Shown piece after piece: positions 19,514 to 57,536 of a stretch of DNA of 64,000 nt. The position numbers and the translations under genes were made by a program. Within the stretch, counting starts at the first letter, position 1. Every line of letters begins with the position of its first letter. The DNA is taken from the NCBI GenBank assembly GCA_031362865.1, contig JANLTH010000003.1, positions 62,848-126,847 on the forward strand. The letters run 5' to 3'. The stretch comes from Burkholderiales bacterium (GTDB lineage Bacteria; Pseudomonadota; Gammaproteobacteria; Burkholderiales; JAEUOS01). The notes beneath the pieces are model-generated. The model saw nothing but the letters and a program-made list of their open reading frames with translations, searched no databases and was not told the origin of the DNA.

Positions 19514-19537
19514 ATTAAATAGGGACAGTCCCTATTT
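19514..19537. repeat. 24-nt AT-rich palindromic motif ATTAAATAGGGACAGTCCCTATTT, copy 1
   Basis: Identical 24-mer at 51782..51805. 10-bp arms AAATAGGGAC / GTCCCTATTT around a single central A. Lies in the 52-bp gap between the permease and ATPase genes. Confidence 0.8.
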
Positions 19538-19560
19538 GTTGGCATCTATCCCATCGGACT

Positions 19561-21934: not shown

Positions 21935-22765
21935 TCAAGCCATCTGCCGCAAGAGCCGCGCCAGATAATCGTTTCCAGCAATCGCCCGACTGCCAAACCA
22001 GCTCGTCATCTCACCATCAATCAGGCGAACGGTTTTGTTTTTGAAGCGCGGCTGCGCGGCCAATTCGTCGCAATTAGCCTGCTTGAACTGATACGGTTCG
22101 GTGGAAAGCAACACTGTATCGACCTCGTCAAGCCAAGGCTCATCCAGCGTGATGATCGGGTAGCGGGCACGCCCGGTTTCCGGCGATGATACCGAAAGAG
22201 GCTTATCTGGCAAGCTTCTCCAGCCCATCTGCGCGAGTGTTTGCGCGATGTAGGTCGATGGCGCAATCGTCATCCACGGGTCTTTCCAAATCAGATAGAG
22301 CACCCGCCTGGCGCGGTGCTCGCGAGCGGACTCTCGCAGCGTGGCCTGGCTTTGATTAAAGCGCTCGCACAGATTTTCGGCCTGTGCGTTTCGCCCAAAA
22401 ATGCCACCGAGCAATCGAAACAAAGCGAGATTGTCAGAAGGGGCACACGGGTGGGTCACGACGACGTGCGGCACAAACTCACGCAGCGCGTCGACGGTCG
22501 GCTTCTCGTTTTCATCCACATTAACCAGCACGTGCGTGGGCGCAAGCTTGCGCAGTTTGTTCAAGTTGACGGTTTTGGTGCCGCCAATTTTCGGGATGCG
22601 ACGCACAGCATCAACCGGGTGAATGCAATAGCCAGTGCGCGCGACCATTTGGTCGGTGAGCCCCAACTCGCACAGCAGCTCGGTCAGGCTGGGCACGAGC
22701 GAGGCGATACGCGGCCTACCCTGCGCTGGCGCGTGCGGCGAGCCGAGAGCGTCGAACAGTGTCAT
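21935..22765 (-). CDS. BtuF-like periplasmic-binding-fold (helical backbone metal receptor) protein, no obvious signal peptide
   Basis: RIASLVPSLTELLCELGL and IGGTK..NLNKLRKLAPTHVL match the cobalamin/siderophore-binding family. ATG at 22765 is preferred over the track start at 22942. Confidence 0.6.
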   Translation of the reverse strand: MTLFDALGSPHAPAQGRPRIASLVPSLTELLCELGLTDQMVARTGYCIHPVDAVRRIPKIGGTKTVNLNKLRKLAPTHVLVNVDENEKPTVDALREFVPHVVVTHPCAPSDNLALFRLLGGIFGRNAQAENLCERFNQSQATLRESAREHRARRVLYLIWKDPWMTIAPSTYIAQTLAQMGWRSLPDKPLSVSSPETGRARYPIITLDEPWLDEVDTVLLSTEPYQFKQANCDELAAQPRFKNKTVRLIDGEMTSWFGSRAIAGNDYLARLLRQMA

Positions 22766-23013: not shown

Positions 23014-24024
23014 ATGAACGCCTCCACCGCAGACCCCGTCAAGAGCCTCAGGCAGCCGCGCGCGGTGCTCACGCGCACTAGCTTGCTCGATGCCGCGCTC
23101 AAGGTCATCCGCGCCAAAGGCTATAGTGCAGCCAGCATCGACGACATGTGCGCGGCAGCTGGCGTAACCAAAGGCAGCTTCTTTCATCATTTCTCCAGCA
23201 AGGAAGACCTCGCGATTGAAGCGACGCGCCACTGGAACGCGCTCACCGGTGGCTTATTTGCCAACGCGGCTTATCACCAAGTGCCAGACCCGCGCGCGCG
23301 AATTCTTGCTTACATCGATTTCCGCGGACAAATCGTGCAAGGCGAGCTGGTCGATGTCACGTGCCTCTTGGGCACCATGGTGCAAGAAACCTTCGACAGC
23401 CACCCTGCGATTCGCGCGGCTTGCCGCGAAGGCATCGAGAGCCACGCCCGCACGCTGGTACCCATGATCGCCGAGGCCCGCGCCTTGTACGCGCCCCAGG
23501 CCGATTGGAATGCCGACAACCTCGCGCTCTACACCCAGGCAGCGCTGCAAGGTGCTTTCATCGTCGCCAAAGCGCAGGGCAGTGCAGCTATCGCGGTGCT
23601 GCTGATCGCCCACTTACGCGACTATGTGCAAGCATTGCTGACCCCGCCGACTGTCCCGACAAACCGGCTTGAAACCTATATCGACGGCTATGTCATGGTC
23701 GTGCCCCAAGCCCACAAGGCGGCATTCATCGAGCATGTGAAGCAGTCGATTCCGATCTACAAAGAATATGGCGCGTTGCGCGTGGTCGATTGCTGGGCTG
23801 ACGATCTGCCTATTGGGCGCATCAACACTTATGGCCATGCCGTACAGCTCGAAGCGGGCGAAGCGGTGGTGTTTTCGTGGATTGAATGGCCCTTCAAAGC
23901 CATCCGCGATGCTGCCTGGCCGCTCATCTTGAAAGACCCGCGCATGCACCCCGACGACAACCCCAGGCCCTTCGATGTCAAACGCATGCTACGCGGCGGA
24001 TTTCAAACCATCGTCAACGGCTGA
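23014..24024 (+). CDS. TetR-family regulator fused to a C-terminal DUF1428 domain
   Basis: The N-terminal ~200 aa carry a TetR HTH (AASIDDMCAAAGVTKGSFFHHFSSKEDL). The C-terminal ~120 aa (YIDGYVMVVPQAHKAAFIEH...VVFSWIEWP...KRMLRGGFQ) align by eye along their whole length with the stand-alone DUF1428 at 25662..26015. Confidence 0.75.
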   Translation: MNASTADPVKSLRQPRAVLTRTSLLDAALKVIRAKGYSAASIDDMCAAAGVTKGSFFHHFSSKEDLAIEATRHWNALTGGLFANAAYHQVPDPRARILAYIDFRGQIVQGELVDVTCLLGTMVQETFDSHPAIRAACREGIESHARTLVPMIAEARALYAPQADWNADNLALYTQAALQGAFIVAKAQGSAAIAVLLIAHLRDYVQALLTPPTVPTNRLETYIDGYVMVVPQAHKAAFIEHVKQSIPIYKEYGALRVVDCWADDLPIGRINTYGHAVQLEAGEAVVFSWIEWPFKAIRDAAWPLILKDPRMHPDDNPRPFDVKRMLRGGFQTIVNG

Positions 24025-25486: not shown

Positions 25487-25545
25487 TTTTTAGGCGAAAA
25501 GCAGCATCCCTCCGTATCAACCGAGCGCTGAGCGCTCACTTTTCA

Positions 25546-25648
25546 TTCCATTTCTAAATCATTACGAGATTAGGCGCACCGACGACGACAGTGCGCGAAG
25601 CACGGCTAGGAAGGGGCAACGACATATCGTAATGATTTAGAAATGGAA
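25546..25648. mobile_element. 103-bp MITE, copy 1 (22-bp perfect terminal inverted repeats, TCA target duplication)
   Basis: TTCCATTTCTAAATCATTACGA ... TCGTAATGATTTAGAAATGGAA, flanked by TCA at 25543-25545 and 25649-25651. Differs at one position from the copy at 57288..57390. Confidence 0.85.
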
Positions 25649-25661
25649 TCAGGAGTCAATC

Positions 25662-26015
25662 ATGAACTATCTAGACGGATTCGTAGCCGCTGTGCCCGCA
25701 GCCAACAAAGAGGCTTACCTCAAGCATGCGGCAGACACTGCGGTCATGTTCAAAGAGTACGGTGCCGTGAGCGTGGTTGAAAGCTGGGGCGATGATGTGC
25801 CCGAAGGCAAGCTCACGTCCTTCCCGATGGCGGTGAAGCGCGAGGAAGGCGAAGTGGTGGTCTTCTCGTGGATCGCATGGCCATCCAAAGCCGTGCGCGA
25901 CAGTGCCTGGGAGAAAATCATGGCTGACCCGCGCATGGGCCCTGATCGCGCACCCCCGCCACTGGACGGCAAACGCATGATCTACGGTGGTTTTCAAATC
26001 ATCATGGAGAGATAG
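25662..26015 (+). CDS. DUF1428 family protein
   Basis: 117 aa. YLDGFVAAVP..NKEAY, VVFSWI.WPSK and KRMIYGGF are hallmark DUF1428 segments. Confidence 0.8.
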   Translation: MNYLDGFVAAVPAANKEAYLKHAADTAVMFKEYGAVSVVESWGDDVPEGKLTSFPMAVKREEGEVVVFSWIAWPSKAVRDSAWEKIMADPRMGPDRAPPPLDGKRMIYGGFQIIMER

Positions 26016-40103: not shown

Positions 40104-40162
40104 AGGATGGGCGAAGGGGTAGGTGCTGGAGTCGAAAGTTTAGCGGCAGCGAACGAAAACTT

Positions 40163-40301
40163 CCGTCAAGGCGGGGCCATAAACAAAAAACCCCGTCGAG
40201 GCGGGGCTATAAACAAAACCCCCGACCGAAGCGGGGCTATAAACAAAAAACCCCACCGAGGCGGGGCTATAAACAAAAAACCCCACCGAGGCGGGGTTTT
40301 T
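40163..40301 (-). repeat. array of four-plus tandem 30-bp units, each a GC-stem hairpin with a U-tract on the minus strand (stacked intrinsic terminators)
   Basis: Units GCGGGGCYATAAACAAAA(A/C)(A/C)CCCCRNCGAR at 40171, 40201, 40231 and 40261, plus a terminal GCGGGGTTTTT. Read on the minus strand, each gives CCCCGCCTCGGTGGGG followed by TTTTTT. Confidence 0.8.
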
Positions 40302-40332
40302 GCAGCGAAACAACGAACTCGCTGAAGAAAAC

Positions 40333-41807: not shown

Positions 41808-41860
41808 TGCAGGACCAGAGTGGGGTCGAAAGAAAAACCCGTTTCGCGGCGGGAGAAAAA

Positions 41861-41890
41861 ACAAAAAACCCGCCGAGAGGCGGGTTTTTC
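41861..41890 (-). terminator. intrinsic terminator downstream of cspA
   Basis: AAAAAA-CCCGCC-GAGA-GGCGGG-TTTTT lies ~20 nt after the csp stop. On the minus strand the stem is followed by a U-run. Confidence 0.75.
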
Positions 41891-51389: not shown

Positions 51390-51790
51390 TGTCGGTTAAA
51401 ACGCAGTGGCTCAACAAAGTGAAGTGGGACGATCAAGGCCTGGTGCCGGTGATCGCCCAGGAGTTTGGCTCCAACAAGGTGCTGATGTTCGCCTGGATGA
51501 ATCGTGATGCGCTGGCCAAAACCGTGGCAAGCAACGAAGCGGTCTACTGGTCGCGCTCACGCAAGAAACTGTGGCACAAGGGTGAGGAGTCTGGGCACTT
51601 TCAGAAGGTGCGTGAAATTCGCCTCGATTGCGACGAAGATGTTGTACTGCTCACGGTGGAGCAAGTCGGCGGCATCGCTTGCCACACCGGGCGGCACAAT
51701 TGCTTCTTCCAGAAACTCGACAACGGTGAATGGCAAGTGACCGATCCAGTCGTCAAACCCGCCACCGACATCTACCCGAAAATTAAATAG
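51389..51790 (+). CDS. hisI: phosphoribosyl-AMP cyclohydrolase
   Basis: GLVPVIAQ.......LMFAWMN..AL..T and the CHTG....CF motif. Confidence 0.9.
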
Positions 51791-51805
51791 GGACAGTCCC
51801 TATTT
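51782..51805. repeat. 24-nt AT-rich palindromic motif ATTAAATAGGGACAGTCCCTATTT, copy 2
   Basis: Identical to 19514..19537. Here it contains the hisI stop codon TAG and fills most of the 25-bp hisI-hisE gap. Confidence 0.8.
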
Positions 51806-51815
51806 ATTACCTTCC

Positions 51816-52196
51816 ATGACCGCTACTGACACGCTTGCCCGACTTGCCGCTGTGATCGAATCCCGAAAAGGGAAGAGCCCTGAAGAGTCATATGTGGCGC
51901 GGCTCTTCAGCAAAGGTGATGATGCGATTCTGAAGAAAATCGGTGAAGAGGCGACCGAAGTGGTGATGGCTGCCAAAGACGGTGATCGGCAGAAAATCGT
52001 CTATGAATTTGCCGATTTGTGGTTTCACAGTTTGATTGCATTGGCGCACTATGGTTTGAAACCGCAAGACGTGCTCGATGAACTTGCGCGCCGCGAAGGG
52101 CTCTCAGGCTTGGAGGAGCAGGCTTTGCGAGCGGTGCAGGCGCGAGAAGTGAACGAGACAAATCAGGTTAGTTTGGCCCAAGGGGACAGCCGATGA
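51816..52196 (+). CDS. hisE: phosphoribosyl-ATP pyrophosphatase
   Basis: [23 protein letters not shown] and ADLWFH motifs. Confidence 0.9.
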
Positions 52197-56401: not shown

Positions 56402-56438
56402 CCTGCACGGCTTTGATAGATTGCCTCAAGAAGCTTAT

Positions 56439-56462
56439 GTGTTGCGCTTCTTCAGGCAACAC
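56439..56462. terminator. hairpin GTGTTGC-N10-GCAACAC between convergent genes
   Basis: 7-bp stem. With the downstream flank it shares the 15-mer GCAACACTACACTAG with the end of the 166-bp element copy B (54377..54391). Confidence 0.5.
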
Positions 56463-56466
56463 TACA

Positions 56467-57536
56467 CTAGCCCTTCAATCGGCCGGCTGCCTCACGCACA
56501 ATCTCGTCGGTTGATTTGTTGCGCGCGCACCAGCCTGCGACATTCCGGCTTGAATTGCTTAAGCCATGCCGGTCTGGACCGCTTCCCTCGCCTTCGAGCG
56601 TGGTTGCCGCAACGCCCGCCTCGCGCGCTTTAATCGTCATCACGGTTTGCGAGGGCCAAACGACATTGCGGTCTTTCGGGTCGCCCAGCACAAACACACG
56701 CAAGTTCGAATGCACCTTCACCTTGTGCAAATGCTCGGTCGGTTCGTAGGAGTCCGCAAACCCCGTGCTGTCGCGCTGCCAGCCGCGGGTTTGCCAGCGC
56801 ACGCGCGGCGAAGAGGGTGACGAAGTCGGTATCGCGCACACGATGTCGGCGCGATGGGTCACGAGCGAAGCGGTCACATGCCCGCCACCGCTCTGGCCGG
56901 CCAACACCCACTCCTTGATGCCAAATTTCACCTTGAGTTGATCCATCGCGGCTGAAATCAACAGCGATTCGGCGGGGCGGCGGCGCTCCATGTGCTGGCC
57001 GGAAGAGCCGTGGGTTCCAGGCCTGGCAAAGAAGATATACGGCGCACCGATTTGCCTGGCCCAGTCGTCGGCATCGCGCTGCAACTTCGCATTGGTCATA
57101 TCGAGATAGCGCTTGTTGGTGCGCCCCTCGCCAATCCATACGTCGCCGTGAAAGAAAATCACCGCGCGTTCCACCTTGCCTGCCTGAAACCCGGCCGTCC
57201 AGTACTTCAGGCACTCAGCGCCATGTTGCGGGTGGGTCACCCAAACTGCATTGGTAAGCCGGTCGCATTGCGCTTTTGATGCACTTATTCCATTTCTAAA
57301 TCATTACGAGATTAGGCGCACCGACGACGACAGTGCGCGTAGCACGGCTAGGAAGGGGCAACGACATATCGTAATGATTTAGAAATGGAATTACCCCACG
57401 TTTGATGGTCGCCTCTGAGAAGTCACCGTGCTCGGAAAACTCGGCCCGCCCGCCAGGCGCAGCTGCCGTCGCTTGAGCAACCATTGCGACCAGTGCAACC
57501 CACACAACATGTTGTATTCGCTTCATCCCAAACCTC
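56467..57536 (-). pseudogene. secreted alpha/beta-hydrolase (esterase/peptidase-like, GQSGGG nucleophile elbow) interrupted by a MITE
   Basis: The 5' fragment (ATG 57536 after GGAGG, signal peptide MKRIQHVVWVALVAMVAQATA) runs into the MITE and stops at 57296. The 3' fragment is track ORF 56467..57240. Removing the 103-bp element plus one TTA copy joins both in frame. Confidence 0.75.
57288..57390. mobile_element. 103-bp MITE, copy 2 (TTA target duplication), inserted in the hydrolase gene
   Basis: Same 22-bp perfect TIRs as copy 1, flanked by TTA at 57285-57287 and 57391-57393. One internal mismatch to copy 1. Confidence 0.85.

Follow-up and report, generated by a model that had tools for sequence, protein, structure and literature searches.

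Recently inserted copies of a 103-bp MITE with IS630-like ends and T-N-A target-site duplications in a Burkholderiales bacterium

Results

Two copies of a 103-bp element in the window

The window, that is, the whole 64,000-nucleotide stretch of DNA analysed here, carries two copies of a short inverted-repeat element, one placed directly upstream of a DUF1428 gene and the other inside an alpha/beta-hydrolase-like gene. The features at both loci are as follows.

25523-25537, plus strand: terminator-like hairpin (GAGCGCTGAGCGCTC followed by ACTTTTCA), shortly before the site where copy 1 inserted
25543-25545, no strand: left target-site duplication of copy 1, TCA; confirmed against the empty site in L062/L063
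25546-25567, plus strand: left terminal inverted repeat (TIR) of copy 1, TTCCATTTCTAAATCATTACGA
25568-25626, plus strand: core of copy 1, 59 bp, non-coding, 61% G+C, homologous to Polaromonas and Rhodoferax cores
25627-25648, minus strand: right TIR of copy 1, the exact reverse complement of the left TIR
25649-25651, no strand: right target-site duplication of copy 1, TCA; confirmed against the empty site in L062/L063
25652-26015, plus strand: native ribosome-binding site GGAG (25652-25655) and DUF1428 gene (25662-26015; PF07237, 148 bits), with the upstream region displaced by 106 bp
56467-57287, minus strand: 3' fragment of the disrupted alpha/beta-hydrolase-like gene (called as the 257-aa ORF P0001, starting at an internal GTG; intact allele P0122, 317 aa)
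57285-57287, no strand: left target-site duplication of copy 2, TTA, which is TAA in the orientation of the gene
57288-57390, plus strand: copy 2 of the MITE, with TIRs at 57288-57309 and 57369-57390 and one mismatch relative to copy 1
57391-57393, no strand: right target-site duplication of copy 2, TTA; confirmed against the empty site in L061
57391-57526, minus strand: 5' fragment of the disrupted gene, with signal peptide and first ~45 codons, ATG at 57526

The first-pass annotation had described two copies differing at one base, with perfect 22-bp TIRs, and both statements hold. The single mismatch lies at position 53 (A vs T), and the first 22 nt of each copy are the exact reverse complement of its last 22 nt. 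The window contains this 22-mer four times, whereas none of 100 dinucleotide-preserving shuffles contains it, and no third or partial copy of the MITE was detected in the 64 kb. The G+C content is 47% for the element, 27% for its TIRs and 61% for the core, compared with 58.5% for the window. As RNA, the 103-bp element forms a hairpin of -42 kcal/mol (z = -8.3). It has no coding capacity of its own, the sole ORF crossing it being read-through from the disrupted host gene, and IS630-like coding sequence is absent from the window (tblastn, best E 0.16), in agreement with its initial description as non-autonomous. Rfam returned no match at the gathering threshold across the whole window.

Empty sites in close relatives

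Comparison with orthologous empty sites had been set beforehand as the refuting test for the transposon reading, and it is the alternative of ancestral sequence that fails on it. Contig L061, syntenic with the window and ~97% identical to it, has the empty site of copy 2, CGTGGGG TAA GTGCATC, where the window reads, on the gene strand, CGTGGGG TAA (103 bp) TAA GTGCATC. The copy 1 site is empty in L062 and L063, whose DUF1428 protein is 98% identical to that of the window: these contigs show CACTTT TCA GGAGTC, and the window TCA (103 bp) TCA. The spacer between the VOC and DUF1428 genes measures 69 bp in L062/L063 (…CACTTT TCA GGAGTCAATCATG…) and 175 bp in the window. The TCA/TCA and TTA/TTA flanks reported at first are thus confirmed as duplications against the empty sites, and the empty site of copy 1, TTTTCAGGAG, does not contain TA. 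A Logan contig of the same strain, 100% identical to the window, ends 25 bp into copy 2, a break that is expected of a repeat.

Both copies are therefore recent insertions, proven by the empty sites in relatives ~97% identical, and the recent mobility first proposed stands. Since the copies are 99% identical to each other and both sites are empty in a 97%-identical relative, a transposase has been active very recently. The 103-bp element is a genuine, non-autonomous, recently mobile MITE.

Copy 1 and the DUF1428 gene

The DUF1428 start codon (ATG at 25662) begins 13 nt past the end of copy 1, as had been stated, and the insertion point lies 3 nt upstream of the ribosome-binding site of this gene, so that copy 1 is placed between the terminator-like hairpin with its T-run (25523-25537) and the native GGAG. 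The accompanying claim that the element supplies the upstream sequence of the gene is true only in a trivial sense: the GGAG lies in the native flank, outside the element, and the DUF1428 genes of L062/L063 have the same ribosome-binding site and spacer with the element absent. Outward promoter activity toward DUF1428 had also been named as a point to check; a consensus scan found no promoter-like site facing this gene, the single match pointing the opposite way. The region upstream of DUF1428 is thus 106 bp of recent foreign DNA.

Two further observations were made around this gene. The stem of the terminator-like hairpin at 25523-25537 is perfect in the window (GAGCGC-TGA-GCGCTC) and has two mismatching bases in L062/L063 (GAGCGCTGAATGCTC). 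Upstream, a single ORF (23014-24024, plus strand) combines a TetR-like N-terminus with a second DUF1428-like C-terminal domain, and its 3' part (23839-24012) shares 71% DNA identity with the stand-alone DUF1428 gene (25830-26003).

Copy 2 and the split hydrolase-like gene

Removal of copy 2 together with one TTA (106 bp) joins two minus-strand ORFs into one of 317 aa, in which an alpha/beta-hydrolase-like body follows a signal peptide. In a database search, ~230 homologs with lengths of 300-330 aa matched this reconstruction over 92-100% of its extent, the homologs being labelled Polaromonas, Ramlibacter, Limnohabitans and Burkholderiales; the truncated 257-aa ORF was the sole entry with 100% identity. 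In an alignment with nine homologs, no gap interrupts the junction …GDFSEATIKRGV/SASKAQCD…, which crosses invariant columns. Furthermore, the 90% cluster of the truncated ORF includes a 317-aa allele, P0122, which matches the reconstruction in length and junction and is encoded on L061, the contig with the empty site. Copy 2 is thus inserted within codons 45-46 of a gene for a secreted alpha/beta-hydrolase-like protein. The remaining 257-aa ORF has neither the signal peptide nor the conserved N-terminal block and is, for this reason, probably a pseudogene; copy 2 probably inactivates the hydrolase-like gene. The gene call at 56467-57240 (the 257-aa ORF) is really the tail of a transposon-broken gene.

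The wider MITE family and its target

Related genomes hold plentiful further copies, the presence of which the first-pass annotation had left to be checked. A genome scan with a 20-mer end, covering one genome per species, matched at least 58 loci; among the matches listed, ~52 came from a single Polaromonas MAG and others from one Rhodoferax MAG and another betaproteobacterial MAG. In the metagenome scan, the exact 22-mer TIR gave no match and the 20-mer 25 loci, with extra MITE copies from sample Ga0114940. The family is hence found in Comamonadaceae-type genomes, namely in one Polaromonas MAG (more than 50 contigs), in the Rhodoferax MAG and on metagenome contigs. In the plasmid collection, blastn gave no match for the 103-mer, and for a 35-mer at E<=10 only chance matches of 20-21 nt (Staphylococcus, others). 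The TIR had no match in viral contigs, where the sole product of a protein-based scan was a distant relative (36%) whose ends do not match.

Most family copies are 99 bp long, and the range including the window copies is 99-103 bp. Over its full length the window element is 75% identical to the Polaromonas copies and 82.5% identical to the Rhodoferax copy, and the 99-bp family copies are ~94% identical among themselves. Many contigs of the Polaromonas MAG stop 74-77 bp into the MITE; the family disrupts short-read assemblies of Polaromonas.

The bases outside 98 non-redundant ends are strongly constrained, with T at position -3 in 97 and A at position -1 in 96. Between them stands A in 44 ends, T in 37, G in 9 and C in 8 (A or T in 81), and position -4 is C in 57 and G in 24. 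By symmetry, these counts describe a target that is roughly C-TWA-G. Identical 3-bp flanks surround 32 of 35 complete copies (TTA 19, TAA 9, TCA 2, TGA 2), and the 'inverted' pair TTA/TAA occurs in none of the 35. A reading of these flanks as TA duplications is ruled out by the TCA and TGA cases and by the empty site of copy 1, which has no TA. Formally, identical sequences would result from a 105-bp element that includes the bounding A…T and duplicates a single base pair within a T-N-A target.

Several matches were set aside. 'Orphan' TIRs in Polaromonas contigs, considered as ends of a long IS, belong to normal copies of 99 bp whose second TIR is degraded, or to truncated copies. The AT-rich gut and marine loci L067-L071, L074-L076, L079-L083, L088 and L090 are unrelated or chance matches. 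The same holds for three loci of the genome scan that are situated within coding sequence (L036, L048 and L058). In the Polaromonas MAG contig JAYVGI010000403.1 (L024, 310-~1950), a MITE copy is interrupted after 32 bp by another insertion, with a Y1 transposase ORF of the IS200/IS605 type at 1440-1823 (Pfam Y1_Tnp 117 bits, NCBIfam IS200 120 bits). This interior was rejected as the partner of the MITE, being an IS200/IS605 insertion into a MITE. A lone TIR with a TCA flank and an unrelated A/T-rich interior is found at 2151-2173 of the Betaproteobacteria MAG contig JAYUOW010000062.1 (L010); with neither a second TIR nor a transposase nearby, it was rejected as an IS end.

Ends shared with IS630-family elements

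The closest ends outside the family were found on two metagenome contigs of low G+C content, L073 and L078, in which TAA is followed by terminal bases identical to those of the MITE at 22 of 22 positions. An ORF begins 64 nt inside these ends and continues in L078 as a degraded IS630-type transposase with the IS630/Tc1 signature …DGAGWHKS…LLPPYSPELNPEGNIW. L078, the contig with the closest ends (~40% G+C), is itself defective, and a protein search with its transposase remnant retrieved homologs that all carry Pfam DDE_3. The sources of full-length ISs were the DNA behind several of these homologs and tblastn matches in annotated plasmids.

The complete relatives obtained in this way are elements of 1,121-1,127 bp with two ORFs, the first with HTH_33/HTH_23 domains and the second with DDE_3. 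Each carries a version of the MITE terminal repeat at either end: TTCCGATTCTAACTCATTAAG and TTCCATTTCTAAGTCATTAAGG in L091, TTCCATTTCTAATTCAATAGTG and TTCTATTTCTAATTCAACAGTG in a Paraburkholderia element (L099, L100), and a perfect 22-bp TIR, TTCAATTTCTAATTCAATAGTG, in a Caballeronia element (L094, L098), which occupies 600-1724 of L094 (pSBC1_3). The MITE TIR matches those of L091, L099 and L094 at ~17-20 of 22 positions. OrfB scores 122-128 bits on the NCBIfam model NF033545 'IS630 family transposase', the cut-off of which is 100, and the two ORFs cover successive parts of this model (OrfA positions 4-134, OrfB positions 146-297). The initial attribution of the MITE to the IS5 family is therefore not sustained, since the full-length elements with these ends belong to IS630. 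Indeed, no IS5-type gene was found beside such an end in ~100 loci.

The flanks of these elements resemble those of the MITE. T-W-A precedes 13 of 14 IS ends, and in complete replicons of Caballeronia and Paraburkholderia the flanks are TTA/TTA at three independent sites. Out of six full-length IS copies with both flanks available, three have an identical direct T-T-A. As this is only half of the copies, the evidence for a 3-bp duplication rests on the MITEs and not on the ISs. In L091 (1907-3033), L102 (64-1188) and L096 (~599-1736), T-W-A is found on both sides with a different middle base (TTA/TAA, TAA/TTA and TAA/TTA, respectively). This could reflect chimeric metagenome assembly, recombination between IS copies or a real feature of the IS.

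A full-length partner was found neither in the window, nor in ~350 kb of the Polaromonas MAG, nor in the Comamonadaceae sequences examined, and the core of the MITE shows no similarity to the interiors of the ISs. An IS630 relative on plasmid pPNAP04 of P. naphthalenivorans (L097) was discarded as a partner, being degraded and having different ends. The contig of protein P0244 (L105) yielded another truncated copy without ends.

At the OrfA/OrfB overlap, some copies of the IS630 clade conserve an A7 run, TGGAAAAAAAC (L091 ~2443-2453, L105 ~393-403), which is a plausible candidate for a programmed -1 frameshift site. The Caballeronia copy has TGGGAAAAGAAC in place of this run and a 1-nt stop/start overlap, TGATG.

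Other repeats in the window

Three further kinds of repeat were observed in the window. A 30-bp unit made up of a G+C hairpin and a subsequent A-run (GGGGCTATAAACAAAAAACCCC…) is repeated five times head to tail at 40144-40313, with an extra unit at 41822-41871; the arrangement resembles terminator-like hairpins in tandem. A second dispersed repeat, unrelated to the MITE, is a palindromic REP-like unit of ~40 bp (CCTGAAGAGGCGCGCC…CTTCTTCAGGCATCG, 62-81% identity) at 21947, 27872, 39256, 45440, 55283, 56424 and 63243, and also at 1788, 4167, 15611 and 51879. Some of these units lie in short intergenic gaps, such as that at 56424-56465, which separates the disrupted hydrolase gene from the monooxygenase gene. 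Finally, ATTAAATAGGGACAGTCCCTATTT is present twice (19514-19549 and 51782-51817) and contains a perfect palindrome (TAGGGAC·GTCCCTA) that looks like a putative operator site.

Discussion

Comparison with known elements

Characterised elements of the IS630/Tc1/mariner group integrate at TA with a 2-bp stagger, so that TA is duplicated (PMC2170065). The full-length relatives described here resemble IS630/ISY100-type elements in their HTH domains and DDE_3 domain, their match to NF033545, their short TIRs and their length of ~1.1 kb. Moreover, the C-TWA-G target of the present family recalls the CTAG of IS630, both being palindromic and A/T-centred. Unlike characterised IS630 members, however, the transposase of these relatives is split into two ORFs, and the MITEs of the clade duplicate the 3 bp T-N-A, in which any base may occupy the middle position.

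The closest parallel among bacterial MITEs is RUP of Streptococcus pneumoniae, a 107-bp element with IS630-Spn1-like ends that is proposed to be mobilised in trans by IS630-Spn1 (PMC2229807). The two were compared by description. Both are ~100 bp long, non-coding, dispersed in many copies, bounded by IS630-like TIRs and able to form a hairpin (PMC2229807). RUP inserts at TA, whereas the present family duplicates T-N-A (3 bp), and RUP resides in a Streptococcus host with its partner IS in the same genome, whereas no partner was found in the Comamonadaceae lineage considered here. The Correia/NEMIS elements of Neisseria are likewise betaproteobacterial, ~100-155 bp long, with TIRs of ~24-26 bp, often located near gene starts and forming hairpins in transcripts (PMC2229807). 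They differ from the present MITE in their TA duplication and in carrying IHF sites and promoter elements; they have no known partner, and there is no sequence relationship between the two. The cyanobacterial MITE Nezha was, like the present one, validated through filled and empty sites. Nevertheless, its length of 130-170 bp, ISNpu3-type TIRs and direct repeat of ~10 bp contrast with the 99-103 bp and the 3-bp duplication observed here, and identity with Nezha is excluded by size and by direct-repeat length.

A possible transfer of Nezha to Polaromonas JS666 has been reported, and the genome paper of JS666 is cited for a Polaromonas MITE. No description of the present MITE family was found in the literature searched, in Rfam or in plasmids, and none of an IS630 clade that duplicates T-N-A in that literature. 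The early impression of a new-looking element holds within this scope, and the JS666 MITE may belong to the same family. The family is apparently undescribed, while its kind is known: by analogy, it would be an IS630-derived MITE comparable to pneumococcal RUP. The MITE type itself is ordinary; what is notable is that IS630-type ends go together with a 3-bp T-N-A duplication, in place of the canonical TA.

Mobilisation in trans and alternative explanations

Identity at 22 of 22 terminal bases, together with the same T-W-A flanks on IS630 elements, is hard to explain as a chance match. It is therefore likely, judging from these ends, that the MITE has been mobilised in trans by an IS630-family (Tc1/mariner-like) DDE transposase encoded elsewhere, with both copies the product of recent events. 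According to this model, a transposase of the IS630 clade would bind the 22-bp TIRs through its HTH domains, the TIRs serving as binding and cleavage sites, and would excise the element by cut-and-paste. The 3' ends of the element would then be joined to a T-N-A target, preferably C-TWA-G, with a presumed 3-nt stagger, and gap repair would duplicate T-N-A. In the window, insertion of copy 2 has parted the signal peptide of the hydrolase from its body, and copy 1 has set a very stable 103-nt hairpin between DUF1428 and whatever lies upstream, with a possible effect on expression.

A different, unseen transposase might instead move the MITE, its IS630-like ends having arisen by convergence or capture, and the family might even be dead. 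Such an origin would fit the lack of a partner in any Comamonadaceae sequence examined, a target duplication unlike that of canonical IS630 (PMC2170065) and a core unrelated to the IS interior. We consider it improbable, given the complete terminal identity and the T-W-A flanks shared with IS630 elements. A dead family is, moreover, at odds with copies 99% identical whose sites are both empty in a 97%-identical relative.

Within IS5, the IS1031 group makes a 3-bp T-N-A (TWA) duplication, as do the related eukaryotic PIF/Harbinger elements, with their Tourist-like MITEs. The likeness of the present MITE to IS5 subgroups in this respect underlies the proposal that an IS5-family element of an IS1031-type subgroup gave rise to it and mobilises it. 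The duplication is indeed real in the MITE family, and it is the signature of the IS1031 group. It is not the textbook signature of IS630 (PMC2170065). Nevertheless, IS5 transposases are of the DDE_Tnp_1 type, whereas every full-length element recovered with these TIRs encodes an IS630-type transposase (DDE_3, NF033545), and the ~100 loci inspected had no IS5-type gene next to such ends; this origin thus appears even less credible than that of an unseen transposase.

Finally, it is highly implausible that the element is ancestral or host-functional DNA (a REP-like palindrome, a terminator or a regulatory hairpin) or has been domesticated for DUF1428, as its very stable hairpin and the position of copy 1 immediately upstream of the DUF1428 ribosome-binding site might suggest, because both loci are empty in close relatives and flanked by precise 3-bp duplications in the window, copy 2 breaks a conserved ORF, Rfam gives no match, no promoter-like site faces DUF1428 and the gene of the relatives keeps the same ribosome-binding site and spacer without the element.

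Implications

Besides its probable mobilisation by an IS630-family transposase, the MITE family might, more tentatively, be the footprint of an unrecognised IS630/Tc1-mariner subclade that integrates with a 3-nt stagger at T-N-A (C-TWA-G) and not with a 2-nt stagger at TA, a proposal that we put forward as a possibility somewhat short of an even chance. The closest full-length relatives are found in lower-G+C anaerobes and in Burkholderiaceae, and the ends would, if such a subclade exists, have spread horizontally into Comamonadaceae. The family also provides a handy marker of very recent strain divergence. If the link with IS630 holds, it would offer dozens of natural 3-bp T-N-A integrations in a superfamily defined by TA, and with them a testable clue to the way in which these enzymes gauge the stagger and recognise their target. 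A T-N-A subclade would represent a natural variant of target capture in a transposase family whose mechanism has been well studied.
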